From Candidatus Omnitrophota bacterium (GTDB taxonomy: Bacteria; Omnitrophota; Gorgyraeia; Gygaellales; Profunditerraquicolaceae): DNA of 64,000 bases. Numbering within the stretch: position 1 is the stretch's first letter; the number at the start of each line of letters is the position of its first letter. The DNA lies in assembly GCA_041661605.1 (NCBI GenBank), contig JBAZUE010000003.1, forward strand, positions 13,934 through 77,933, given 5' to 3'. Under the pieces are notes generated by a model. The model searched no databases. It was not told where the DNA came from and worked only from the letters and a program-made list of their open reading frames with translations. Position numbers and translations under genes: made by a program. This document shows, piece after piece, positions 1,341 to 35,966 of the stretch.

Positions 1341-1541
1341 TTATAACTTCACTACTTTAGTAGCTTGTTCACCTTTAGGACCTTTTTCAATCTCAAACTC
1401 AACCTCCTGGCCCTCCTCTAAAGTCTTATAGCCATCACCCTGGATCGCAGTATGATGCACAAACACATCAACACCGTTCTCAGGAGTAATAAATCCATAG
1501 CCTTTTTGATTGGAAAACCACTTTACTTTTCCCTTTGCCAT
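1341..1541 (-). CDS. Cold-shock protein (CspA family)
   Basis: 66-aa ORF with the RNP1/RNP2 motifs KGYGFI and VFVHHTAI. A roughly 155-nt untranslated leader (1542-1696) precedes it, as is typical of csp mRNAs. Confidence 0.92.
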
Positions 1542-1696
1542 TTTCTTTGCTTCCTCCTTTCCACAAAATTATAGCAGGTTTATAAGGAAAAACAAAAAAC
1601 CGCAAGGCTTACTTTCTCTCTCCTCACGGCTAAAGATTCCTAACCTTCTCTGCTATGAGTAAATAATATACATTAAAGTGCCGGTTTGTCAATTGT

Positions 1697-1987
1697 TTAT
1701 TTTAGGCTATCTATCCCTTTAAGGTTATAGTAACCCAGGACTTTAACCTTGGCCCTGGATTTACCTACTAACCAATCATGATACTTGCCCATAAACTGTT
1801 CATGATCTGATTTCTTTGCCCACTGGTATACTGAGGCATACTGATTTATGAATCCGTAACGCTTCATAGTCTGATACGCCAAAAACCCCCTGGATTTCTT
1901 AGTGTAAGAAGCCCACATCAGGCTATCTTTACGGTATTTAGCTACCTCTTTCGGCTTTACTTCAAACAAAACAACATGAATAAACAT
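1697..1987 (-). CDS. Small ABM/dimeric alpha-beta-barrel-like protein (function unknown)
   Basis: 96-aa ORF. Its size and pattern (MFIHVVLFEVKP...) resemble the antibiotic-biosynthesis-monooxygenase-like fold. This is a weak, pattern-level call only. Confidence 0.3.
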   Translation of the reverse strand: MFIHVVLFEVKPKEVAKYRKDSLMWASYTKKSRGFLAYQTMKRYGFINQYASVYQWAKKSDHEQFMGKYHDWLVGKSRAKVKVLGYYNLKGIDSLK

Positions 1988-2036
1988 ATAGTCCTCTTTT
2001 TTAATTTAGAAGTTAGATTATTATACGCTTAAATGG

Positions 2037-3833
2037 CTACCATTGCAACCTTAAGCCTGCCTCAATATACCTGCCCGGCTGCGGGATACCCTCAATATCC
2101 TGATATTCCACATTCAGGATATTCTCTATATGCAGAAAAACTTTAGCGTTATGGTTTAAATTATAATTAAGCCCGGAGTTCACCAAGAGCCAACCCCGGC
2201 GGCCAGGTCTCTTTTTATAATTAATTCCTATCTCTTGCTGGCCAAAAGGCAAATCCAGGTTAAAAACCGTATTAACTAAATGACTGGCATAATTCGGTCC
2301 GTATTTATAGAGATACCCCTGGTTGTCTATATTTTTATCCGTATAAGTATAATTGGCATCCAGACTGAACAACCTGTTAAGCTTCTTGTGTAATGCATAT
2401 TCAACACCAAAAACATTATCACGGGTAAAATTCTTTGCCTGCCATTTTTGGGCTGGATCAGACCTGACCCAATCAATCATTTCCTTCTCTTGGCGAAGAA
2501 ATAAAGATAAGCTACTGGATAATCCTTCTTTCTTATATTCAAAGCCCGCTTCATAATTCCATGCTTTCTCGGAAGCTAAATTATCATTACCGACCGTAGT
2601 GGGATCGCTATAATAAAGTTCGGTAAATGACGGAACGCGCATGCTTCTTGAGATGCCGAAATTAAACGCTGTATCAGGCGTAAGCCTAAACTTGACGCTT
2701 AAAGAACCGGTATATACTTTACCAAAACCGGAAAAATCTTCCCAGCGTATAGAAGAACCTATGTCCCATTTTTCTCCAAGACACAGGGAGTTATCTAAAA
2801 ACACGCTTTTGCGATCACGGATGTGCCTGCCCAGGTTAGTAGAAGTAATCCTCTCCTGAGACCACTCTGTCCCCAAACCAAGCTTACCCAGCAACCCTAT
2901 TTCTTTTTGTAAATAAATACCCGGGGTAAACATGTCCGTACGATGCTGATTAACGGAGTTAGAGCGCAGATGGGTTCTGTCCAATGTGAATTTGTCATAA
3001 TGCCTGCGCCAGAGGAAATTCGGTTTAATCAACAGTCCGTCACCGTTTAAGCTGATACCGCTGCTTAAGAGATAAGTTTTAGTCTCTTCCCTAGAAAGAA
3101 ACCCTTGGCCCGGGGTATAAAAATCATAAGCGCCAAAATTCTTTTCCTGATAGCCAAAGTTGTTTTCCCATGACCCCGGACCAAATTCGTAATTTGTGCT
3201 TACTGAAGAGGTAAATTTCTTATAATCCGTGTCTTCCCGAAAACCCTTTGACTGCGCATCTTCAAGGGAAACCCTAAAACCTAAATCCTTAAACCTGTCG
3301 CTTAAGCTGAATAACCCATAACCGTTACGCATACTGCCTGCGCCAAACTCCCAGACAGTTATTTTCTCTTTTGGTTTATTCAAAGAAAAGTTTACCGCCC
3401 CCCCTATGGCATCCGGGCCAAACAGCGAAGAACTGGCTCCGGGGATTAACTCTATTTTTCCGATATCTTCCTTAGTAAAAGGCAAATCAGAATTGTGATG
3501 TGCAGTCTGCGGATCATTAACCCGCTGGCCGTTAAGCAGGATTAAGACCTGCTGGAAGGTTGAGCCGCGCAGCGAAAAATCCGTCTGTATCCCGCTTTCT
3601 AAAGCACGGCTTTGTAAATCCACAGGCAAATTATTCAAACTTTCCAGGCTGGTTTGATAATTAAAAGCCTGGTCTTTCCCGGGATCCGTAGAATAGGTAT
3701 TCAGGAGAAACTGCTTTTGCTTACTGATAACTATTGGTTCTAATTCCTGACAGTTGTCTTCGGAGGAAAATGATATCTTTGGCAGAATAAGAATTATAAT
3801 GATAAAAAAACCGCTCCATCTTATTTTAAACAT
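2037..3833 (-). CDS. TonB-dependent outer-membrane receptor (BtuB/CirA-like)
   Basis: 598-aa ORF with a signal peptide and a TonB-box-like EPIVIS. Plug-domain blocks are present (SLRGSTFQQVLILLNGQRVNDPQ, IELIPGASSSLFGPDAIGGAVNF). The C-terminal barrel ends in the aromatic ...GLRLQW. Confidence 0.88.
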   Translation of the reverse strand: MFKIRWSGFFIIIILILPKISFSSEDNCQELEPIVISKQKQFLLNTYSTDPGKDQAFNYQTSLESLNNLPVDLQSRALESGIQTDFSLRGSTFQQVLILLNGQRVNDPQTAHHNSDLPFTKEDIGKIELIPGASSSLFGPDAIGGAVNFSLNKPKEKITVWEFGAGSMRNGYGLFSLSDRFKDLGFRVSLEDAQSKGFREDTDYKKFTSSVSTNYEFGPGSWENNFGYQEKNFGAYDFYTPGQGFLSREETKTYLLSSGISLNGDGLLIKPNFLWRRHYDKFTLDRTHLRSNSVNQHRTDMFTPGIYLQKEIGLLGKLGLGTEWSQERITSTNLGRHIRDRKSVFLDNSLCLGEKWDIGSSIRWEDFSGFGKVYTGSLSVKFRLTPDTAFNFGISRSMRVPSFTELYYSDPTTVGNDNLASEKAWNYEAGFEYKKEGLSSSLSLFLRQEKEMIDWVRSDPAQKWQAKNFTRDNVFGVEYALHKKLNRLFSLDANYTYTDKNIDNQGYLYKYGPNYASHLVNTVFNLDLPFGQQEIGINYKKRPGRRGWLLVNSGLNYNLNHNAKVFLHIENILNVEYQDIEGIPQPGRYIEAGLRLQW

Positions 3834-3839
3834 GAAAGT

Positions 3840-3867
3840 ATTATAAGATGTGCGGTTTAATTGTCAA
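3840..3867 (-). promoter_or_regulatory. Consensus sigma70-type promoter of the TonB-dependent receptor; candidate leaderless mRNA
   Basis: Minus strand reads TTGACA (3867-3862), 16 nt, TATAAT (3845-3840). The ATG (3833-3831) begins 6 nt after the -10 hexamer and no Shine-Dalgarno sequence is present. Confidence 0.5.
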
Positions 3868-3891
3868 CCAATAATATAATTATGGTTTACG
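3862..3891. promoter_or_regulatory. BirA-operator-like inverted repeat
   Basis: TGTCAACC-N14-GGTTTACG overlaps the -35 hexamer and abuts the birA stop codon. It resembles the BirA bio-operator half-sites (E. coli bioO TTGTAAACC / GGTTTACAA). Confidence 0.4.
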
Positions 3892-3892
3892 G

Positions 3893-4849
3893 TTAACGCA
3901 AGTGCATAACATCCCCGGAGAAAACTTTCTGCATGAGCCCGGAGTCTTTTCGAACAAGCAAGGCGCCATCCTGGTCAATATCCACAGCCTGGCCCTCAAT
4001 GTGTTTATCCTGGCAATATATCTTAACGCGCCTGCCCAGGGTAAGGCTAAAATTACGCCATTTATCAATTATCTCCCGGGCGCCCTTATCCTCGAGAAGA
4101 AAATAGTTGCTTTCAATCCTGCGTAAAAGTTCCTGCAGCAGAATAATGCGGTTTACCGGTTCAGCTGTCTGTTCTTTTAAAGAAGTGGCCTGGGCAATTA
4201 AAGATTTCTTATCATTATTGACATTTAAACCAATACCGATAACCAAAAAGTTAACCTTATCTACCTCGGCGTTCATTTCAGTCAAAATACCGGCAACCTT
4301 CTTATTGCAGATAAAGACATCATTGGGCCATTTGATCTGCGCATCCAAACCGACAGTCTTTTTTATCGTTTCGCAAATACTCACCGCGCTTAAAAGCGTA
4401 AGTATCGGTGAAGCCGATGGCGAGATCTCCGGCCTTAAGATTAATGACAAGTAAATACCTTTGTATTTAGGAGAAAACCAGCCCCTGCCCAATCTTCCGC
4501 GGCCCTTAGTCTGTGATTCAGCCAAAACGACTGTTCCATGCGGGGCTGCCTGTATCCCTAATTGCATCGCCAGGTCCATGGTTGAAACTAAATAATCGAA
4601 ATAGTGTATTTTCTTGGCGATAAATTTCGTATTAAGCCCATGGGCTATCTCTAAAGCAAAAAGCCGGTCCGGGCTGGATTCAAGCCGATAACCTAAATGC
4701 GGTACTGCAGCAATATCATATCCTAAGTCTTTCAAATCCTGGATATGTTTCCACAGCCCCTGCCGGCTGATCCCCAGACGGCTGGATATTTCATCGCCCG
4801 AAAGATATTCCCTTTGTTTTTTAAGATAATCGAGTATTTTTTCTTTCAT
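3893..4849 (-). CDS. birA: Bifunctional biotin-[acetyl-CoA-carboxylase] ligase / biotin operon repressor BirA
   Basis: 318-aa ORF. It has an N-terminal wHTH (LSGDEISSRLGISRQGLWKHIQDL) and a ligase core with GRGRLGRGW. This is the repressor-type (class II) architecture. Confidence 0.92.
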   Translation of the reverse strand: MKEKILDYLKKQREYLSGDEISSRLGISRQGLWKHIQDLKDLGYDIAAVPHLGYRLESSPDRLFALEIAHGLNTKFIAKKIHYFDYLVSTMDLAMQLGIQAAPHGTVVLAESQTKGRGRLGRGWFSPKYKGIYLSLILRPEISPSASPILTLLSAVSICETIKKTVGLDAQIKWPNDVFICNKKVAGILTEMNAEVDKVNFLVIGIGLNVNNDKKSLIAQATSLKEQTAEPVNRIILLQELLRRIESNYFLLEDKGAREIIDKWRNFSLTLGRRVKIYCQDKHIEGQAVDIDQDGALLVRKDSGLMQKVFSGDVMHLR

Positions 4850-5892
4850 CTACTTTTACCAAGATACTCTTCAAATTTAGCCCAGAAAGGATCAACCCTG
4901 GGATGCTCAAGTGCGTGGATTTTATTCCCGCTGAAAACACGCATTCCTTTATTGCGTTCAGTGACCTCGCCAACAATACTGGCAGGAATTCCGGCTCCTT
5001 CCAGAACAGATACAATCGGCTTAGCCTTCTTCTTGTTTGCCGTAACCAGGAGAGTGCCTTCGCTTATAGATTTATAAGGATCGATGCCAAAACAAGAACA
5101 AACCAGGCGCACTTCTTCCTGCAGAATTATCTTGTCCAAATCAATACACATGCCCACCCTGCTGTGCTGGGCAATCTCAAAAAGCCCGCCCCATACCCCG
5201 CATTCCGTAGCATCATGCATAGCTGTTAATCCTCCAATGGAGGCAGCCAAAGAAGCATCTTTTACCGTAGACATCTGATAAAAAATATTTTGCGCCCGTT
5301 TCAGGAAAACCGGTCCATATTTATTTTCAATAGGCCCCGGAAAATAAGCAGACAACAAGCCGGTAGTCTCAATAGCTGGCCCCTTAGAAACGATAACCGC
5401 GTCCCCCGGTTCTGCATGCGGGTTGATAAGCTCTCTCTTCCTGCCTAACCCAAACATAGTCGCTCCGCCTACCATAGGATAATTGCATCCGGCATAGCGG
5501 GCAGTATGACCGGTTACTACGCTGATGCCTAGCTTTTTACATTCCTTATGCACAGCATTCCACAATCTTACCAATTCATCTTCGGTAATCTGCGGCGGGA
5601 GGTTAAGGTCAATTGCCAGGTACTTAGGCCTGATACCGCTTACGGCAACATCACTGGCAATGATATGCACGGCAAACCAGGCAGCCTTTTCCATCCCTAA
5701 ATCTTTAGCGATAAAAAATGGATCCGTGGATAAAACCATCACTTGAACACCCAGATCCACCACGCCAAAATCCACGCCGTTCTGCGGCTTGACCAAAACG
5801 GATTTATCCGGTTTGCCTAATTTATGGTATATGTGCTGGTTAAAAAAATCCGGGTGGATCTTACCAAGCCTGGGAAGCTTAACTCTTTTCAT
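4846..5892 (-). CDS. AIR-synthase-related (PurM/HypE/ThiL/SelD-fold) ATP-dependent enzyme, function unassigned
   Basis: 348-aa ORF with PurM-like N and C domains (NGVDFGVVDLG, SVVTGHTARY, HDATECGVWGG). It overlaps nifS by 14 nt and birA by 4 nt, so it lies in the same operon. Confidence 0.65.
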   Translation of the reverse strand: MKRVKLPRLGKIHPDFFNQHIYHKLGKPDKSVLVKPQNGVDFGVVDLGVQVMVLSTDPFFIAKDLGMEKAAWFAVHIIASDVAVSGIRPKYLAIDLNLPPQITEDELVRLWNAVHKECKKLGISVVTGHTARYAGCNYPMVGGATMFGLGRKRELINPHAEPGDAVIVSKGPAIETTGLLSAYFPGPIENKYGPVFLKRAQNIFYQMSTVKDASLAASIGGLTAMHDATECGVWGGLFEIAQHSRVGMCIDLDKIILQEEVRLVCSCFGIDPYKSISEGTLLVTANKKKAKPIVSVLEGAGIPASIVGEVTERNKGMRVFSGNKIHALEHPRVDPFWAKFEEYLGKSR

Positions 5893-7042
5893 AAAGGGGG
5901 CTCATCGCGCGCAGCTTTTGTACAATCTGAGGGAATTTCTCTAAAAAATAGTCTATGTCGCTTTCCTTAGTCCAGCGTCCAAGAGTAATCCTGATTGAAC
6001 CATGTGCAGTTGCATGATCCAGACCAGTAGCTAATAAAACATGCGAAGGCTCTAAAGAGCTTGAGGTGCAGGCTGAACCAGTAGAACAAGCAATACCAAG
6101 TAAATCCAAATTCAGAAGGATAGACTCTCCTTCAATATATTTTATGGAAAAGTTGACATTATTCGGCAGCCGTTTCACGGGATGGCCGTTAAGTTTTACT
6201 TCCGGGATGCGGCTGGGGATCTCCTGAATCAGCTTATCCCGCAAAACACTCTGGAATTTAATTTCGTTCGCCATATTCTTTTGGCAAAGCTGAATAGCTT
6301 TGCCTAATCCGACTATCCCCGTAGTATTATAAGTAGAACCGCGCCTTCCCCTTTCTTGGTCTCCGCCGCGCATAAATGTTTCCAGGCGCCTGCCCTTGCG
6401 GACATATAAGGCACCCACGCCTTTTGGCCCATAAAATTTATGGGCAGAAAGCGATAAAAGGTCAACATTCAGATCATCAACATTTACCGGAATATGTCCT
6501 ATGGTTTGCACGGCATCGGTATGAAAATAAATCCCTTTTTCTTTGATGATCCTGCCAAGTTCCGCGATAGGCTGAAGCGTTCCAATCTCGTTATTGGCCT
6601 GCATTATACTGACCAGGATGGTCTTCTCAGTAATCGCCTCTTGAAGTTCTTGCGGGGAAACCAAACCGTCTTTATCCACTTTAAGATAAGTAACTTTAAA
6701 ACCTTTCTTTTCTAAGAATTTAGCCGGTTCGGTAATGGCATGATGTTCAATGGCAGAAGTAATAATATGGTTGCCTTTCTTCTCCAATGCATAAGCAGAG
6801 CCTAAAAGCGCAAAATTATCTGATTCGGTTCCTCCGGAAGTAAAGACAATCTCCTCGGGGCTGGCTCCGATAAACTCAGAGAGCGCCTGGCGGGCATCCT
6901 CAATCGCTTTTTTAGCCTCCTGTCCGTAGGCGTGCAGGCTTGAAGCATTGCCGAATTTATCAAAGAAATACGGCTCCATCGCAGCTAAGACTTCCGGGTC
7001 AGTTGGTGTAGTCGCAGCATAATCAAAATATACTTTTTTCAT
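5879..7042 (-). CDS. nifS: Cysteine desulfurase (NifS/IscS type)
   Basis: 387-aa ORF with the PLP-lysine motif SAHKFYGPKG and the active-site loop CSTGSACTS. Confidence 0.92.
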   Translation of the reverse strand: MKKVYFDYAATTPTDPEVLAAMEPYFFDKFGNASSLHAYGQEAKKAIEDARQALSEFIGASPEEIVFTSGGTESDNFALLGSAYALEKKGNHIITSAIEHHAITEPAKFLEKKGFKVTYLKVDKDGLVSPQELQEAITEKTILVSIMQANNEIGTLQPIAELGRIIKEKGIYFHTDAVQTIGHIPVNVDDLNVDLLSLSAHKFYGPKGVGALYVRKGRRLETFMRGGDQERGRRGSTYNTTGIVGLGKAIQLCQKNMANEIKFQSVLRDKLIQEIPSRIPEVKLNGHPVKRLPNNVNFSIKYIEGESILLNLDLLGIACSTGSACTSSSLEPSHVLLATGLDHATAHGSIRITLGRWTKESDIDYFLEKFPQIVQKLRAMSPLYEKS

Positions 7043-7845
7043 CTCTTAATTACCTCATTTAAGCTACCTGTCCGATACCCTTCTAGATCTAATGTAATAT
7101 AGGTATAACCCAAGCTTTTTAACTTATCAACTATCGCCCGGCGGTTACGCAAGAGACGATTAATATGTTTTTTCTCCACCTCAATCCGGCAAAGCCCGTT
7201 ATAATGGCGCAGCCTGACAAGCCGGAATCCCAGGCTGACCAGATACGCCTCTGCCTGATCAATGCGTCTAAGCAATCCGGCAGTAATCTTAGTGCCATAA
7301 GGTATGCGCGAAGCAAGACAGGCCAAAGGCGGTTTGTTCCAGCTGGACAAACCTAACATTTTGCTTAATTTGCGGATATCTTTTTTAGCAAAACCTGCCT
7401 CAAGCAAAGGAGACCTTATCCCAAGCTCTTTCTTTGCGACATTTCCCGGACGGTAATCTGATTTATCCGAAACATTGCTGGCATCCAAAACAAAATCAAA
7501 GTTTTTCTTCCTGGCAATAACGATTAATTTCAGAAATAATTCTTTTTTACAAAAATAACAGCGGGAAGCAGAATTAGCGGTGAATTCTTTATTATCTAAC
7601 TCCGCGGTTTTAATTACCCTGAGCTTTGTGCCTATCTCTTTAGCCAGTATCTTTGCCTTACGCAACTCATCCTTAGGATATGTGGCCGAAACCGCGGTTG
7701 CTGCCAGGATATTTGCTTTTGGCAAAACGAGCGAACAGAGTTTAAGCAAAAGCGCGCTATCCTGGCCTCCGGAAAAAGCAACTACGCATGACTTATATCC
7801 GTAGATTTTACGCTTAAGGCAGGCAAGCTTATGCTGAAAGGTCAT
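7039..7845 (-). CDS. larE: PP-loop ATPase of the LarE family (ATP-dependent sulfur transferase-like)
   Basis: 268-aa ORF with the PP-loop AFSGGQDSALL. It also carries RCYFCK, DYRPG and the LarE-type PLACLASRIPYG block containing the sulfur-donating or cluster-binding Cys. Confidence 0.65.
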   Translation of the reverse strand: MTFQHKLACLKRKIYGYKSCVVAFSGGQDSALLLKLCSLVLPKANILAATAVSATYPKDELRKAKILAKEIGTKLRVIKTAELDNKEFTANSASRCYFCKKELFLKLIVIARKKNFDFVLDASNVSDKSDYRPGNVAKKELGIRSPLLEAGFAKKDIRKLSKMLGLSSWNKPPLACLASRIPYGTKITAGLLRRIDQAEAYLVSLGFRLVRLRHYNGLCRIEVEKKHINRLLRNRRAIVDKLKSLGYTYITLDLEGYRTGSLNEVIKR

Positions 7846-13637: not shown

Positions 13638-14927
13638 TTACTTCTTTAGTATCTTTTTTAAATCTTCCTCGGGCGTACTAATCAACCGTAAATCAAATTT
13701 TTCCTGCAGGATGCCAAAAACATTCTTACTTATAAAAGCCGGCGGAGTCGGCCCTATATAGATACCTTTGATATTAAGATACAACAAAGTAAGTAAGATG
13801 GCAACTGCTTTTTGCTCAAACCAGGACAAAACCAGAGTCAAAGGGAGCTGATTTACCGTACAATTAAACGCTTTGGATAAGGCCACAGCAACCTGAACCG
13901 CAGAGTAGGCATTATTACATTGGCCAACATCAATTAATCTGGGTACCCCCTCGATTTCGCCAAAATCCAGCTTGTTAAAACGGTATTTACCGCAGGCAAG
14001 AGTAAGAATCAGGCAATCCTTGGGGACCCGTTCAGCAAACTCCGTATAGTAGTTGCGTCCGGGTTTTGCTCCATCGCAGCCTCCGATTAAGAAAAAATGC
14101 CTGATCTTGCCGGTTTTCACCAAATTTACAATTTTATCAGCTAATCCCAGTATTGCTGTATGATGAAAACCGGTCCAAATCTTTTTACCGGGAGCTTCAG
14201 GCAAAGCCGGTAATGATTTAGCTTTCTCAATCAAAACTTTAAAATCCCGGTTTTTTAGGTGTGTTGCCCCTGCTATGCCAGTAATCCCTATTGTAAACAA
14301 CCTGTCCAAATAGCTATTTTCCGGGGGGATTAAGACACAGTTAGTAGTTGCCAACAACGCTCCGCTAAAAACATTAAATTCCTTCTTCTGTTCCTGCCAG
14401 GCGCCGCCATAGTTGCCTACTAAATGCTTAAATTTCTTTAGTTCCGGGTAACCGTGCGCAGGCAGCATTTCGCTATGCGTATAAATGTTGACTCCGCTTC
14501 CCTGGCTCTGCTTAAGCAACTCATAAAGGTCAAGCAGGTCATGTCCAGTAACTAAGATTCCCGGACCGGATTTAGTCCCTGTTTCAACCTCAGTAGGCAC
14601 GGGATTACCGAACCTCTGCGTGTGCGCCTTATCCAGCATCTCCATAGTTCTCAAATTAATAGCCCCGCATTTTAACACTAATTCCAGGTATTGATTCAGA
14701 TCAAAACTTACATTAGTTACGGTCTTAAAAAGAGCTTCATGCATAAAAGCGTCTACTTCTTCATCATGAGCCCCTAACTCTCTGGCATGATAAGCATAAG
14801 CAGCAATACCTTTTAACCCATATAAAAGTGTATCTTGCAGGCTCTGGACATCTTCGTTCTTACCGCAAACCCCAAGCTTTGTGCAACCTGTTCCGCCTAC
14901 TGTTTGTTCGCATTGATAACAAAACAT
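13638..14927 (-). CDS. hcp: Hybrid-cluster protein / hydroxylamine reductase, short (429-aa) form
   Basis: N-terminal MFCYQCEQT...GCTKLGVCGK cubane-binding motif and conserved Hcp core blocks. It is about 120 aa shorter than E. coli-type Hcp. Confidence 0.85.
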   Translation of the reverse strand: MFCYQCEQTVGGTGCTKLGVCGKNEDVQSLQDTLLYGLKGIAAYAYHARELGAHDEEVDAFMHEALFKTVTNVSFDLNQYLELVLKCGAINLRTMEMLDKAHTQRFGNPVPTEVETGTKSGPGILVTGHDLLDLYELLKQSQGSGVNIYTHSEMLPAHGYPELKKFKHLVGNYGGAWQEQKKEFNVFSGALLATTNCVLIPPENSYLDRLFTIGITGIAGATHLKNRDFKVLIEKAKSLPALPEAPGKKIWTGFHHTAILGLADKIVNLVKTGKIRHFFLIGGCDGAKPGRNYYTEFAERVPKDCLILTLACGKYRFNKLDFGEIEGVPRLIDVGQCNNAYSAVQVAVALSKAFNCTVNQLPLTLVLSWFEQKAVAILLTLLYLNIKGIYIGPTPPAFISKNVFGILQEKFDLRLISTPEEDLKKILKK

Positions 14928-23616: not shown

Positions 23617-25032
23617 TTATGATTTCTTAAGGGCCTTATTTAACGCTTCTTCAAAAAGCTCTACCCCCAAGTCAATCTCTTCTTCTGTAATATAAAATGA
23701 CGGGGCAATGGTAAAGACATTCTTATAATAACCGCCGACATCAAGAATCAAGCCTCGTTTCTTGCCTCCGGCGCTTAAAGAACCGCTTAAACCTAAATTT
23801 ACAATCCTATCGGTTAATTCTTTATCCGGAGTATAGCCGTCTTTACCGCACATCTCTATCCTTAAAGCCAGGCCAAGACCATCCACGTCTCCTATCTGCG
23901 GATACTTTTTCTGCAGCTTCTTAATCCTTGAGATAAAATACTGTCCTTTTCTGGGTACAGACACAGAGAAATCAGATTCCTCAATCAATTTCATTACTTC
24001 CAGTCCCACGGCTGTCCCCAGAGGATTGCTTGAAAATGTCGAGTGAGTTGACCCCGGAGGGAAAATGTCCGGAGAGATAAACTTCTCCTTGGCCCAAATC
24101 CCTGAGATAGGGTTTAATCCGTTAGTTAAAGCTTTGCCGAAAACAATAATATCGGGAGTGATATTAAAATGCTCAATCGCCCAGAATTTACCGGTACGGA
24201 AAAATCCCATTTGTATTTCATCATCAATAAAAAGAATGCCATAACGATCAAGTATCTCTTTTAACCCAGAAAAATAATCCTGCGGAGGAATTATATAACC
24301 ACCCGTACCTTGGACGGCTTCTGCGTAAAAAGCAACGAATTCGCACTTATTGTTCTTTTTATTTACTACTGAATGGTACTCGGTTTCAAAGAGTTTCTCA
24401 AATTGTTTAAGGCAGTATAGATCGCAAAAATCCTTCTTTTTATCATAAGGGCACCTGAAACAATAGGGATAAGGTACAAACATCGCCCTGTCCCCAAAGT
24501 GGCCAAATCTTTCCCTGTACCTAAAGCTTGAGGTGATTGCTGATGCCCCCAATGTCCTGCCATGATAACCGCCCATAAACGCAAACACCAGGCTTCTACC
24601 GGAATAGTTACGTACCAATTTCAGCGAGTCTTCCAGGGCACTTGAACCGCCGACATTAAAATGGATCCTGCCTTTTTCCTCAAATGTGCGCTCATTTTTT
24701 TGTGCTAATTTTGCGGCAAGCTGGATCTTTTCCTCATGCAAATACTGACAGGCAAGCTGCGGCAAGGTATCAATCTGTTTTTTTAAGGCGGCGTTTAAGC
24801 GTTTATTTTTATACCCAAAGTTAACCGCAGAATACCACATCTGTAGATCTAAGAATTCCACGCCCTGCTGATCATAAAGATAGCAACCTTCGGCGCTCTT
24901 AAATACATTTAACTTCTCGGCGTAATGCACCGTATCCCCCCATGAGCAGTATTTCGCCTCCAGGTTCAACAGCTGCTCGGATGGAACAATCTTTTCGTTC
25001 TTGCCTGCCCTGGTCAATTGTTTTTGGCTCAC
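23617..25032 (-). CDS. Class-III (omega-type) PLP-dependent aminotransferase
   Basis: 471-aa ORF with FIDDEIQMGFFRTGKFWA and DIIVFGKALTNG (PLP lysine), typical of the class-III family. Confidence 0.85.
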   Translation of the reverse strand: MSQKQLTRAGKNEKIVPSEQLLNLEAKYCSWGDTVHYAEKLNVFKSAEGCYLYDQQGVEFLDLQMWYSAVNFGYKNKRLNAALKKQIDTLPQLACQYLHEEKIQLAAKLAQKNERTFEEKGRIHFNVGGSSALEDSLKLVRNYSGRSLVFAFMGGYHGRTLGASAITSSFRYRERFGHFGDRAMFVPYPYCFRCPYDKKKDFCDLYCLKQFEKLFETEYHSVVNKKNNKCEFVAFYAEAVQGTGGYIIPPQDYFSGLKEILDRYGILFIDDEIQMGFFRTGKFWAIEHFNITPDIIVFGKALTNGLNPISGIWAKEKFISPDIFPPGSTHSTFSSNPLGTAVGLEVMKLIEESDFSVSVPRKGQYFISRIKKLQKKYPQIGDVDGLGLALRIEMCGKDGYTPDKELTDRIVNLGLSGSLSAGGKKRGLILDVGGYYKNVFTIAPSFYITEEEIDLGVELFEEALNKALKKS

Positions 25033-28699: not shown

Positions 28700-29383
28700 T
28701 TAATCCTTGTAATAAGTTGGCGGTACATTCAGGACAGTATAACGCGCTGCTTCAAGCAGGCATTCATAAATAACTTTACCCATGGGAGTCCCGGAGAAAT
28801 CATTTAACCCTGCTTTAAAAACCTTATCATGGGGGGTATTTATTTTATTACCGGGATTCTCCACCGCCTGACTTTGAATATCCCGGCTGCTTATTACATT
28901 TGAAGTGGCGCGTTCTACAATACGCAGGTTTAACTGCATAGTTGCCTTGTTCAAAGGGGCGCCCAATAAGCCGCCCATAAAACTACTGGCAGCGCTTCCG
29001 CCGCCGGCTATCCCGGACTTACCTCCTGAATTCTCCGGAACAAATTCAATAATCCCCGCGCTAATAATCAGATCCGCTTCCGGCGGAGCGACTATTATAA
29101 AACGCTTGGTATTATTTAAAATGCTGACAAAATATTCTTTTAAAGCCTGTCCGGTTTCCGTATTAAGTCCGGAGGTTTTTAACTCAAAATCGCTAACCGC
29201 TATTCTAGCTTTCGGCCCAGAATACCCTTCTAAAGGCTCTCCTGCCAGATATTTACTTCCCGGAGGCTGCATTTTTGTTGAGAAACATCCCGCAATAAAC
29301 AGAGATATAACCAGGCAGCCAAATAATTTAAAGCCTTTCTTCATACTCATTTTTAATATATTACCAATTAAGCTGACTGTCAA
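28700..29383 (-). CDS. CsgG/HfaB-family-like lipoprotein
   Basis: 227-aa ORF with the lipobox LFIAGC. The pattern ARIAVSDFELKTSG...TGQALKEYFVSILNNTKRF is typical of CsgG-like proteins. It is shorter than canonical CsgG. Confidence 0.45.
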   Translation of the reverse strand: MTVSLIGNILKMSMKKGFKLFGCLVISLFIAGCFSTKMQPPGSKYLAGEPLEGYSGPKARIAVSDFELKTSGLNTETGQALKEYFVSILNNTKRFIIVAPPEADLIISAGIIEFVPENSGGKSGIAGGGSAASSFMGGLLGAPLNKATMQLNLRIVERATSNVISSRDIQSQAVENPGNKINTPHDKVFKAGLNDFSGTPMGKVIYECLLEAARYTVLNVPPTYYKD

Positions 29384-32167: not shown

Positions 32168-32740
32168 TCAATAAATAGACGCCTTGATCCGTGAATGCAT
32201 TTTATTAAAAATAGCTGTTGCGAACACAACCTTTAACAGGTCGCCTGGCACAAAAGGCAAGAAGCCAAGCAAGAATGCCTGACTAAACGGACAAGACAGG
32301 GAAATCTTAAGCCAGAACATCCCGCTAAGCAGGATTATAAAATCCGCGAATAAAAACCTTAAAAACGTATTCCAGTAGTTGCTGTGCTTTCCTTCCAGGA
32401 ATAAACTTCCGGCAAGAAAAGATGCCAGGATAAAACCAACAATATAACCGCCGGTAGGTCCCAAAAGATAAAGAGAGCCGCTGCCAAAACCAGTAAATAC
32501 CTGAGAACCGGTCAACCCCAGAAACAAATACCCTGTCTGGGTCAACAACCCCAATTTCCTGCCCAATAACGCGCCCGAAAGCAAAACAAATAACGTTTGC
32601 AATGTAAGCGGCACAGGCGTAAAAGGCAACGGTATGCGCACAAACGCGGATAAAGTAATTAAAGCTATAAAAACTGTAACCGCCAAAACCCGGGAAACCT
32701 TCTTATTGATAATAATTTCTCTGTTTAGAATCGATTCCAT
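32168..32740 (-). CDS. bioY: Biotin transporter BioY (ECF S-component)
   Basis: 190-aa ORF with the BioY pattern VPLTLQTLFVLLSGALLG, GPTGGYIVGF and LPFVPGDLLK. Confidence 0.85.
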   Translation of the reverse strand: MESILNREIIINKKVSRVLAVTVFIALITLSAFVRIPLPFTPVPLTLQTLFVLLSGALLGRKLGLLTQTGYLFLGLTGSQVFTGFGSGSLYLLGPTGGYIVGFILASFLAGSLFLEGKHSNYWNTFLRFLFADFIILLSGMFWLKISLSCPFSQAFLLGFLPFVPGDLLKVVFATAIFNKMHSRIKASIY

Positions 32741-32807
32741 ATGCTCTCCTATATTGCTGTTATTAGTTAGATTTTCTATACATTATATATTAAAACTGAA
32801 TAATAGC

Positions 32808-32853
32808 AAAAAGAAAATGGGAGCCAGATTATTATCTTGAATCTAGCCCCCAT
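32808..32853 (-). terminator. Rho-independent terminator
   Basis: Minus strand reads ATGGGGGCTAGATT-loop-AATCTGGCTCCCAT, a 14-bp stem with two G-U pairs, followed by TTTTCTTTTT. It lies downstream of the 67-aa gene. Confidence 0.55.
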
Positions 32854-32876
32854 TCTTTATAAATTGAAACCCTGTT

Positions 32877-33080
32877 TTATTCCTTAGCTATAGCCAAGGT
32901 AATCACCCCGGCCAAAATCAAGAACAGGCCGATACAACCCTTGACGATTAAAAGAAGCGCCTTCCACCATTTCAAGATTGCCAAACCTCCTAATACTAAA
33001 AACGCCAGGCCTAAAACAACCTTAAAAAGCGTAGACAGCGTCTTTTTAGCATCGCAGCACTTTTTCTCTTCTCCTGCCAT
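32877..33080 (-). CDS. Small two-TM membrane protein
   Basis: 67-aa ORF with two hydrophobic helices. It lies directly downstream of the acyltransferase gene. Confidence 0.3.
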   Translation of the reverse strand: MAGEEKKCCDAKKTLSTLFKVVLGLAFLVLGGLAILKWWKALLLIVKGCIGLFLILAGVITLAIAKE

Positions 33081-33093
33081 TTAAGCACCTCCT

Positions 33094-34559: not shown

Positions 34560-35966
34560 TTATTTGACTTTAACCTTACGGAAACCTACGGCATCGATAG
34601 GCAGATTCCCGTGAAAAGCTTTTAGGGCCGTCAACACATATTCCGGACTCCCCAAAAATTTAAGCGGGATCCTCAAAATTAAATAATTCCTGCCGGATTC
34701 CAACAAAACCCCGGAGTTAGCTACTCTTTTCTTGGCATTAAACACCCGGGGCTTCTTTCCCGCGGCTATAATGCGTATTTTTGGCATTGCTGGAAAAGCG
34801 GTATTCTTGCTGTATCCGAATGCATAAAGCAGCACGCCAAATCTATTGCTGAGTTTTTTAGTTTTATCCACACGTACAACAAAATAACCATTATCTTCAG
34901 CATAGCTGACTTCCCCGCCGCCTTCTGTCAACTCCTCCTGTATTGAGAATTCCGAAGCAGGCGTATCTTTGAGCATCTTTGAAACACCGGAATAAGAAAC
35001 AGCTTTATCTTTTAATGTTTCCTGGGGAGCCAGCTCCAAAACCGGGTAATCTCCGAATAATTCATTTTCCCTGGCGAAAGAGAGCAGATAAAATGCGCTG
35101 GATTCCGTCTGGCTCTTATAAAAAAGAATGGACTGGTATTTTTTGTCCAGTTCCCCGAACCCTAAGTCTAAACGCACCCAGTTAATCTCCGAATCAATGA
35201 ATTTATCCGGCGGGTATAAATCCAACTCCGGATGGTAATGCCGGGGTTTAGGCCAGCCGATACAATGTACAAGATAAGGATAAACTTTAGGGGCGGGTAT
35301 CCGGCCTTCCAGGTCGCTTAAAGCCACCTGAAGAAATAAATACAAGGATTTATGGTCGACATTAACATCCGCAGGATGCGAAACAAATATTTTATCCGGC
35401 TTATAATCTAATATCTGCCTGCTCAGATCATTCAGGATATTTTCGCCGCAATAAGCAGCTCCATAAGAAGGGTTATCTTCATAAGGCACGCTGGATATAC
35501 GGGTCAGCCGGTCGCGGAATGGTTTGTTGTCCTGCCAATGCCGGCTGAATATAGTAAAAGTGCCGAAATCGGGGTAGCCTAAAAATACCAGGTCTTTTCC
35601 GGATAACCCCAGGGATTCCATAGCCTTAATCGACTCTTGCTGGCGCAGTTTGCCCATATGCACAAACTCTCCCTGGCGCACAGTTATCCTTTTTTCATAA
35701 ACAATAAAAGCCAGTTCATTATGATCGCCATTTGTCAGGTAAACTATTTTTATTCTTGCGCCAGCCTCATGCGCCCGCTGGATAACCCCTGCACAGGCAA
35801 TTGCCTCATCATCAGGATGCGGGGCCAGAATCAACACACGCTCTCCTTTTTTAAAAGGCTCTAATGCGGGTATCCTCGGCCAATATACTTGACCAGGTTT
35901 TTCTATGCTGGCACAACCGGCAAGCAGCAGAAACAACAAGATTGTTAATAGTTTGTACTTACGCAT
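34560..35966 (-). CDS. PIG-L/LmbE-family deacetylase lipoprotein with a long C-terminal extension
   Basis: 468-aa ORF with the lipobox LLLAGC and the PIG-L motif LILAPHPDDEAIACAG plus HPADVNVDH. The C-terminal roughly 170 aa are unassigned. Confidence 0.7.
   Translation of the reverse strand: MRKYKLLTILLFLLLAGCASIEKPGQVYWPRIPALEPFKKGERVLILAPHPDDEAIACAGVIQRAHEAGARIKIVYLTNGDHNELAFIVYEKRITVRQGEFVHMGKLRQQESIKAMESLGLSGKDLVFLGYPDFGTFTIFSRHWQDNKPFRDRLTRISSVPYEDNPSYGAAYCGENILNDLSRQILDYKPDKIFVSHPADVNVDHKSLYLFLQVALSDLEGRIPAPKVYPYLVHCIGWPKPRHYHPELDLYPPDKFIDSEINWVRLDLGFGELDKKYQSILFYKSQTESSAFYLLSFARENELFGDYPVLELAPQETLKDKAVSYSGVSKMLKDTPASEFSIQEELTEGGGEVSYAEDNGYFVVRVDKTKKLSNRFGVLLYAFGYSKNTAFPAMPKIRIIAAGKKPRVFNAKKRVANSGVLLESGRNYLILRIPLKFLGSPEYVLTALKAFHGNLPIDAVGFRKVKVK

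Follow-up and report, generated by a model that had tools for sequence, protein, structure and literature searches.

Organization of the birA-receptor locus

We analysed a 64-kb window (64,000 nucleotides [nt], the whole stretch of DNA considered here; positions 13,934 to 77,933 of contig JBAZUE010000003.1, assembly GCA_041661605.1) from an uncultured Candidatus Omnitrophota bacterium, in which birA, encoding a biotin-protein ligase/repressor, is followed on the minus strand by a gene encoding a TonB-dependent receptor (Table 1). The gap between birA and the receptor gene is 59 nt, and it holds a 30-bp inverted repeat that we describe as a predicted operator of BirA. The birA stop codon TAA (3895-3893) is followed by a single base, C (3892), and then by the repeat, which on the minus strand consists of the left half-site CGTAAACC (3891-3884), an AT-rich 14-nt spacer (3883-3870), and the right half-site GGTTGACA (3869-3862); on the plus strand it reads TGTCAACC-N14-GGTTTACG. 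The last six bases of the right half-site are the -35 hexamer TTGACA of the receptor promoter. An earlier interpretation of this DNA, made from the letters alone (hereafter, the sequence-only reading), had reported the promoter, the 6-nt distance between the -10 hexamer and the ATG, the palindrome, and the position of the birA stop codon, and all of these statements were correct when both strands were read again. Beyond that description, a terminator-like hairpin is present that encloses the -10 hexamer and the start codon.

The birA product contains HTH_11 (Pfam, 4.3e-16, residues 3-55), BPL_LplA_LipB, and BPL_C domains and matches NCBIfam birA_ligase (3e-66); therefore, it is a class II BirA. 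The protein, including its winged helix-turn-helix (wHTH), aligned over the full length with BirA of Staphylococcus aureus (6apw and 3rir) and Escherichia coli (1bia). nifS, an AIRS-like gene, and birA overlap one another, and birA is the last gene of that operon.

Table 1 Features of the birA-receptor locus and other genes of the window referred to in the text.
Feature	Positions	Strand	Description
birA	3893-4849	minus	Class II bifunctional biotin-protein ligase/repressor, 318 aa, N-terminal winged helix-turn-helix
Predicted BirA operator	3862-3891	both	Inverted repeat; minus strand CGTAAACC-N14-GGTTGACA; with flanks A-n...n-T, ~3860-3893
Sigma-70-type promoter	3840-3867	minus	-35 TTGACA 3867-3862, 16-nt spacer, -10 TATAAT 3845-3840
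Receptor start codon ATG	3831-3833	minus	6 nt (ACTTTC) past the -10; predicted transcription start
Terminator-like hairpin	3804-3858	minus	Arms 3858-3843 and 3824-3808, 18-nt loop, T7 3810-3804
TonB-dependent receptor gene	2037-3833	minus	598 aa; Pfam Plug and beta-barrel
bioY	32168-32740	minus	Pfam BioY 1.9e-38
AIRS-family gene (ThiL/HypE/SelD-like)	4846-5892	minus	Overlaps both nifS and birA
orf96	1697-1987	minus	Small conserved cytoplasmic-looking protein, 96 aa, 3' of the receptor gene

Conservation of the predicted operator in Omnitrophota

The operator of the window shows two mismatches to TGTAAACC-N14/15(16)-GGTTTACA, with a spacing of N14. Sites with two or fewer mismatches to TGTAAACC-N14-GGTTTACA are expected 0.027 times per 64 kb, and one was found, at the receptor promoter. 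When the window was scored with a half-site matrix, the operator reached 27.7 bits and the runner-up 3.5 bits.

To compare orthologous loci, one genome per species was scanned with a profile built from 24 receptor sequences, which yielded 80 loci with 35-88% identity. The conservation counts given below refer to the 72 loci with at least 41% receptor identity and readable upstream DNA, or to 73 sequences when the window is included. Homologs of the receptor formed more than 120 clusters at 63-88% identity, and all named ones were Candidatus Omnitrophica/Omnitrophota. The gene order nifS-(AIRS-like)-birA-receptor-(orf96)-mnmA, followed by tblastn with the window proteins, was kept down to 41% receptor identity, and birA lay directly upstream of the receptor gene on the same strand in 71 of the 72 loci. 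The lone locus without adjacent birA, L061, has a divergent gene upstream instead.

All 72 Omnitrophota receptor loci carried the operator with N14 spacing (consensus, TGTAAACC-N14-(G/A)GTTGACA), and in 71 of them it differed from TGTAAACC-N14-GGTTGACA by no more than three mismatches. The operator of L045 was degenerate (GGTCAACT-N14-AGTTGACG) with the core GTCAAC-N16-GTTGAC intact. At the four most distant receptors, which showed 35-39% identity and had no birA nearby, the operator was not found. Conservation of the palindrome at orthologous receptor loci, which the sequence-only reading had named as a check on its proposal, was thus borne out in every one of the 72 loci, with a strict N14 spacing and a variable spacer.

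In the alignment of the 73 regions, G2, T3, A5, A6, and C7 of the left half-site and T25, T26, A28, and C29 of the right half-site were invariant. The spacing was always 14, and the letters of the spacer and of the surrounding sequence varied. The flanks were also symmetric, with A at position -1 in 72 and the mirror T at position 32 in 68 of the 73 sequences, as expected for a dimer. The right half-site holds the -35 hexamer in 73/73 loci; the left half-site lies outside the promoter, yet its core is invariant. In some loci the end of birA is 55-564 nt away, and the operator stays with the promoter, not with the birA stop codon. In L061, the operator and its 14-nt spacing to the -35 hexamer were kept despite the lack of an adjacent birA. 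Judged from the alignment, this conservation is a classic case of the phylogenetic footprint that a dimeric DNA-binding protein leaves. A matrix scan of 704 kb (the window and the 80 loci) revealed no second operator, so that the sites at the receptor promoters (73/73) stood alone; operators upstream of the nifS-birA operon or at bioY were looked for and not found.

Long gaps between birA and the operator were filled by extremely stable GC-rich palindromic inserts with folding energies of -30 to -67 kcal/mol in L011 (3830-3942), L039 (3772-3923), L048 (3552-3696), and L073 (3878-3932). They look like repetitive extragenic palindromic (REP)-like or miniature inverted-repeat transposable element (MITE)-like elements. 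Several records titled 'uncultured Planctomycetales bacterium' (L008, L013, L015, and others) contained the locus at 69-83% receptor identity with the synteny of Omnitrophota metagenome-assembled genomes, and they were probably assigned to the wrong taxon in the source records.

Occurrence of the operator at other biotin genes

The published BirA consensus is TTGTAAACC-N14/15-GGTTTACAA, and the sites at bioB, bioF, and bioW of Geobacter/Desulfuromonas read TTGTcAACC-N14-GGTTgACAA (PMC545781). Metagenome contigs were searched for sites matching all 16 specified bases of TGTAAACC-N14-GGTTGACA, and the gene immediately 3' of the site was classified in a sample of 120 loci. The gene was bioY in 61 cases, bioB in 15, bioF in 3, and birA in 6; the other copies preceded this receptor (4, plus 2 at truncated Omnitrophota birA ends), a nifS homolog (1), or other genes (21), or were unreadable (9). 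Accordingly, bioY, bioB, bioF, or birA lay downstream in 85 of the 111 classifiable copies, and the identity of representative proteins was confirmed by Pfam.

The same motif was found at biotin synthesis genes within the phylum. Around BioB proteins named as Omnitrophica/Omnitrophota, bioB-bioF-bioH-bioC-bioD operons occur in L202, L204, and L206, with bioA next in L204 and L206, and directly upstream of bioB each of them has an operator: TGTAAACC-N14-AGTTTACA in L204, AGTAAACC-N14-AGTTGACA in L206, and AGTTAACC-N14-AGTTGACA in L202. In L202 (3749-10158), nifS-birA is followed by two small genes, the operator, and bioBFHCD, and in L085 (1-1588), the birA stop codon is followed by the operator and bioB. 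These arrangements suggest that, at a single regulated locus (the slot after nifS-birA), a module for synthesis can take the place of one for scavenging and vice versa. Similar sites near other biotin genes, for which the sequence-only reading had proposed to search, are therefore present both in Omnitrophota (bioB in L085, L202, L204, and L206) and in metagenomes (bioY, bioB, bioF, and birA).

Since the same operator precedes bio genes in Omnitrophota and in metagenomes, the receptor gene can be assigned to the BirA regulon. The membership in the biotin regulon put forward in the sequence-only reading agrees with the phylum-wide occurrence of the operator, with the same motif at bioB operons, and with the match to the published consensus. 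Together, these data support the prediction that BirA, encoded next to it, uses the 30-bp inverted repeat as its operator.

The metagenome copy upstream of a nifS homolog (L134, 860-889) is located on a contig of 52% GC, and the nifS homolog is 58% identical to that of the window. Possibly, a related lineage has a nifS-birA operon under autoregulation, of which this site would be a sign.

Promoter and start codon of the receptor gene

The receptor promoter was the only 12/12 consensus match in positions 1500-7500. The -10 hexamer was TATAAT in 65 of the 73 sequences, and the spacer between the -35 and -10 hexamers was 16 nt in 55 and 17 nt in 14 of them. The first in-frame start codon of the long ORF lay 6 nt past the -10 in 52 loci and 7 nt past it in 12 (64/71); it was ATG in 68 and GTG in 3 of the 71 loci, and in every locus the N-terminus that follows is basic and then hydrophobic, like a signal peptide. 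The seventh nt past the -10, where +1 would be expected, is the purine of the start codon, and there is no room for a purine-rich Shine-Dalgarno sequence ahead of the receptor ATG. Other genes of the window do have a Shine-Dalgarno sequence, for example, AGGAG at bioY. Because of this conserved geometry, with the start codon 6-7 nt past the -10 and no space for a Shine-Dalgarno sequence, the receptor mRNA is probably leaderless. The apparently leaderless promoter of the sequence-only reading is thus a recurrent property of the orthologous loci, as predicted from geometry.

Leaderless-type geometry was also seen on the minus strand at 35966 (TTGACT-17-TAGAAT-6-ATG), ahead of a 468-aa PIG-L-domain gene (34560-35966), and at 29350 (TTGACA-17-TATATT-4-ATG), ahead of a 216-aa open reading frame (ORF). 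The products of both begin like lipoprotein or signal peptides.

A hairpin enclosing the -10 hexamer and start codon

In the window, the hairpin is formed by the arms AAACCGC-A-CATCTTAT (3858-3843) and ATAAGATG-GA-GCGGTTT (3824-3808). The 5' arm corresponds to the promoter spacer plus the first three nt of the -10 hexamer, the 18-nt loop contains the remainder of the -10 and codons 1 (the ATG) to 3, and the 3' arm corresponds to codons 4-9. An A-tract precedes the stem, the base of the stem is GC-rich, and T7 follows it. The fold had a free energy of -17.9 kcal/mol (z, -5.8), and none of 200 shuffled sequences folded as well. On the other hand, the RNA of the window from the ATG onward reached only -3.2 kcal/mol (z, -0.75).

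Each locus was folded from the -35 hexamer to about +70. The mean minimum free energy over the loci was -18.0 kcal/mol for the read-through RNA and -6.0 kcal/mol for the RNA starting at AUG. Cognate arms paired at a mean of -17.3 kcal/mol compared to -11.4 kcal/mol for non-cognate arms, a difference that none of 10000 permutations reached. In a subset of 23 ungapped sequences, 87.5% of the cells were paired, compared with 38-56% when the partners were slid, and changes on both sides occurred in 6 of the 15 pairs; 34 double-change cells were counted against 14.4 +/- 3.4 in shuffles (0/500). A hairpin of -10 kcal/mol or below whose 5' arm comes from upstream of the start codon and that is followed by at least five T in the next 8 nt was found in 64 of 71 loci, with at least six T in 56 loci, and it spanned -24 to +24 (median, counted from the ATG). 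A smaller group of loci has a 5' arm that starts past the -10 and takes in the ATG; an AUG-start RNA would still lose most of the arm. The hairpin was weak (-7.0 to -8.6) in L061, the only locus without a co-directional upstream gene.

The structure itself is thus documented by covariation, and it looks like an intrinsic terminator of the upstream nifS-birA operon. nifS, the AIRS-like gene, and birA overlap, and no other terminator was found in the 59-nt gap between birA and the receptor gene; most simply, the hairpin would be the terminator of that operon and would overlap the promoter and first codons of the receptor gene.

Several observations weigh against termination. A standard terminator scan, whose loop limit is 3-8 nt, did not report the hairpin, and the 18-nt loop exceeds the loops of textbook terminators (3-8 nt in standard models). 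RNAalifold gave no consensus structure for the 73-region MAFFT alignment or for 41 ungapped sequences, because the positions of the arms slide and a second geometry, with the 5' arm past the -10, exists. The hairpin was weak or absent in L049, L072, and L004. T-rich codons would be common in a signal peptide in any case, and no Rfam match was obtained in 3000-5000 at E <= 1. The hairpin is also kept in loci in which long stable palindromic inserts already lie between birA and the operator, which is a caveat on its role as a terminator.

These points leave room for other functions, namely, a stabiliser of the 3' end of birA mRNA, a mask of the start codon on read-through RNA, or a by-product of selection on the promoter and the signal-peptide codons. 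Such functions would accommodate the large loop that the terminator rule did not call, the coincidence of the U-tract with Phe/Ile/Leu codons of the putative signal peptide, and the persistence of the hairpin next to very stable palindromes. However, the arms covary instead of being conserved, and a pure sequence constraint is therefore ruled out. Moreover, in 64/71 loci, at least 5-7 T in a row follow the GC-rich base of the stem without a gap, an A-tract lies ahead of the stem, as in many intrinsic terminators, and the 59-nt gap is otherwise without a terminator. We regard a function other than termination as rather unlikely, though one to be kept in mind.

At the two other leaderless-type promoters of the window (35966 and 29350), an enclosing hairpin was not significant (z, -0.5 and -0.2, respectively). 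An enclosing hairpin as a general trait of leaderless-type promoters in the window was thus ruled out.

Identity and candidate substrates of the receptor

The receptor, with 598 aa, has the size of BtuB and matched Pfam Plug (4.8e-10) and TonB_dep_Rec_b-barrel (2.8e-30). Its N-terminus reads MFKIRWSGFFIIIILILPKISFS followed by ELEPIVISK, a stretch that looks TonB-box-like by eye and that the receptor family profile (A1) shows to be conserved; TonB C-terminal-domain proteins have been mentioned for the phylum Omnitrophota in the literature. The family profile aligned end to end with BtuB, its best full-length match in the PDB, at weak similarity (E ~1e-13). A BtuB-type cobalamin receptor was considered and rejected, since the score for the BtuB equivalog TIGR01779 was 109.5 bits against a cutoff of 599.7 and no cobalamin or other riboswitch was found upstream of the receptor gene (Rfam, 3000-5000, E <= 1). 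Scores for siderophore equivalogs were also far below their cutoffs (NCBIfam).

The most likely substrate is biotin or a vitamer, which could be dethiobiotin if bioB is retained. We infer this from the BirA operator found phylum-wide, the adjacency of birA, and the bioB-led genes that occupy the same slot in L202 and L085. Biotin synthesis has been reported to be patchy in Omnitrophota. In the 64-kb window, no homolog of bioB, bioF, bioH, bioC, or bioD was found, and the sole bio-like match was a class-III aminotransferase (23803-24906) with 26% identity to BioA, in agreement with the sequence-only reading, which had noted the lack of bio biosynthesis genes.

Two points speak against biotin uptake through this receptor. 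Biotin (244 Da) normally passes through porins, and the need for a TonB-dependent route is not self-evident. In addition, the region upstream of bioY in the window contains no operator (best score, -2.4 bits), and inner-membrane uptake is not visibly co-regulated. The proposal in the sequence-only reading that the receptor feeds BioY therefore stands as to the identity of BioY (1.9e-38) and as plausible physiology, and it does not hold as to co-regulation.

Alternatively, BirA may control the receptor while the substrate is neither biotin nor a vitamer: through an expansion of the regulon, the receptor could take up another compound linked to biotin-dependent metabolism, a metal, or another cofactor. 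BirA regulons are known to reach fabF, fabH, and acpP in Desulfovibrionales, and the receptor has no close characterized relative (BtuB at E ~1e-13, generic siderophore and heme families in NCBIfam). bioY is not co-regulated, and the neighbours nifS and mnmA are Fe-S/sulfur-trafficking genes. In contrast, the classifiable metagenome targets of the exact operator are mostly biotin transport or synthesis genes, the slot after birA holds a bio operon in L202 and bioB in L085, and there is neither a riboswitch nor a BtuB or siderophore equivalog score anywhere near its cutoff. A substrate of this kind is unlikely in our view.

Proposed regulation of the receptor gene

The probable explanation of the locus as a whole is that the HTH-bearing BirA encoded next to the repeat binds it as an operator and controls the receptor gene, that the receptor mRNA is leaderless, that the receptor serves the uptake of biotin or a vitamer, and that the promoter is nested in a terminator. 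When biotin is sufficient, a BirA dimer loaded with biotinyl-5'-AMP would occupy the operator and exclude RNA polymerase, so that the receptor gene is repressed. Under biotin limitation, apo-carboxylase would use up the adenylate, BirA would come off the DNA, and the receptor would be produced. This mode of repression is modelled on bioO of E. coli. The 5' end of the mRNA would coincide with the AUG or differ from it by one or two bases, and translation would proceed with no Shine-Dalgarno sequence. Where biotin or a vitamer (for example, dethiobiotin) is present outside the cell in small amounts, the receptor would bring it through the outer membrane.

Both arms of the hairpin would be present only in RNA arriving from the nifS...birA operon. 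In such RNA, the hairpin would stop read-through within the first ~30 nt of the receptor gene, and transcripts starting at the AUG, which lack the 5' arm, would continue. The BirA-controlled promoter would then be the only source of receptor expression.

The receptor gene could instead be mainly the distal gene of the nifS-birA operon, expressed with a leader, with TTGACA/TATAAT being incidental and the palindrome a mere roadblock at the end of birA. The short distance of 59 nt between birA and the receptor gene and their common orientation in 71/72 loci would fit such an arrangement. However, the 12/12 promoter is conserved across the phylum (TATAAT in 65/73), the ATG has no space before it for a Shine-Dalgarno sequence, the region around the ATG would be sequestered in the hairpin, whose U-tract would stop read-through, and L061 keeps the operator and promoter without an upstream birA. 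Expression mainly as a distal gene is thus very unlikely. Finally, although the -35 hexamer largely explains the right half of the palindrome, a chance or promoter-associated repeat without a protein partner is extremely improbable and was effectively refuted by conservation and by the sites at other biotin genes, with 0.027 such sites expected per window, the left core invariant at a fixed 14-nt spacing in 73 sequences with a variable spacer, and sites identical to it before bioB, bioY, and birA elsewhere.

Apart from BirA control of the receptor gene, a broader claim would be that this receptor family is the first TonB-dependent transporter of biotin/dethiobiotin and the main BirA-controlled supply route in many Omnitrophota, together with an undescribed layout in which a leaderless, repressor-controlled promoter is nested in an upstream terminator. 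We advance this broader claim tentatively, as an open possibility that falls somewhat short of being probable.

Comparison with known systems

BirA regulons have been reconstructed by comparative genomics (Rodionov et al. 2002, as cited in PMC545781; for Proteobacteria, PMC5343134), and those described comprise bio genes, bioY, and, in Desulfovibrionales, fatty-acid genes. Like bioO of E. coli and the BirA regulons, the present system has a class II BirA with an N-terminal wHTH and a repeat of the TGTAAACC-N14/15-GGTTTACA type over a promoter, and its targets in the same phylum include a bioB-led operon. Unlike in those regulons, the target here is a TonB-dependent receptor, and the operator lies one base past the birA stop codon yet would control the downstream gene, an arrangement distinct from autoregulation. 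The operator itself is an ordinary member of the BirA boxes; what is unusual is its target. We found no paper that links biotin, BirA, or BioY to a TonB-dependent receptor in a literature search that was thin on subscription journals, and a prior description is possible; the statement of the sequence-only reading that a biotin-regulated TonB-dependent transporter is not well described is in line with the literature searched. The locus points to a candidate outer-membrane route for biotin uptake that is undescribed in that literature.

How B vitamins cross the outer membrane is poorly defined, except for B12 and thiamin. BtuB is controlled by a cobalamin riboswitch, and thiamin TonB receptors are controlled by a thiamin pyrophosphate (TPP) riboswitch. 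As in these cases, a receptor of ~600 aa in the 22-strand class appears to be tied to the sensor of one vitamin, with the reservation that the alignment with BtuB is weak; unlike in these cases, a protein repressor would act at the promoter and no riboswitch is present (no Rfam match). The BirA-receptor pairing conserved across the sampled Omnitrophota provides a concrete candidate gene for the uptake of biotin/dethiobiotin, and it bears on the cofactor supply of ultra-small, possibly host-dependent Omnitrophota with patchy biotin synthesis.

Leaderless mRNAs are described as making up a quarter of mycobacterial mRNAs and beginning with 5'-AUG or GUG (PMC4633059; bioRxiv 10.1101/834739). The receptor gene resembles them in the start codon at the predicted +1 position, the lack of a Shine-Dalgarno sequence, and the use of AUG (GUG in 3/71). 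Since a Shine-Dalgarno sequence is present at other genes of the window, such as bioY with its AGGAG, the probable leaderless layout is specific to the gene. With intrinsic (Rho-independent) terminators, the hairpin shares the GC-rich base of the stem, the upstream A-tract, the at least 5-7 U that follow, and compensatory changes. It differs from them in that the loop, 18 nt long, holds the -10 and start codon belonging to the next gene and in that its 3' arm and U-tract are coding sequence, codons 4-10, in the putative signal peptide. No precedent for such a nested terminator-promoter layout was found in a shallow literature search. Four signals (operator, promoter, terminator-like hairpin, and start codon) and the first ten codons fall within ~90 bp, and if termination is true, the hairpin would be a clean natural terminator that tells transcripts apart by their start site.

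Neighbouring genes

The AIRS-family gene lies between nifS and birA in only a subset of the orthologous loci. orf96 is directly 3' of the receptor gene in many of the 80 loci; its product has no signal peptide, and no match was found in Pfam or PDB. A promoter-like site matching 10 of 12 positions is located at 2048-2020 ahead of orf96 and is possibly its own promoter, and the membership of orf96 in the transcription unit of the receptor gene is uncertain.

Two features were seen upstream of bioY (32741-33093, minus strand): a small ORF whose hydrophobic product resembles a membrane peptide, and a GC-rich hairpin (GGGGCTAGA...TCTGGCTCCC) that ends in a T-rich tail. An AT-rich promoter region belonging to bioY itself and the AGGAG Shine-Dalgarno sequence come next, and a BirA site is absent.

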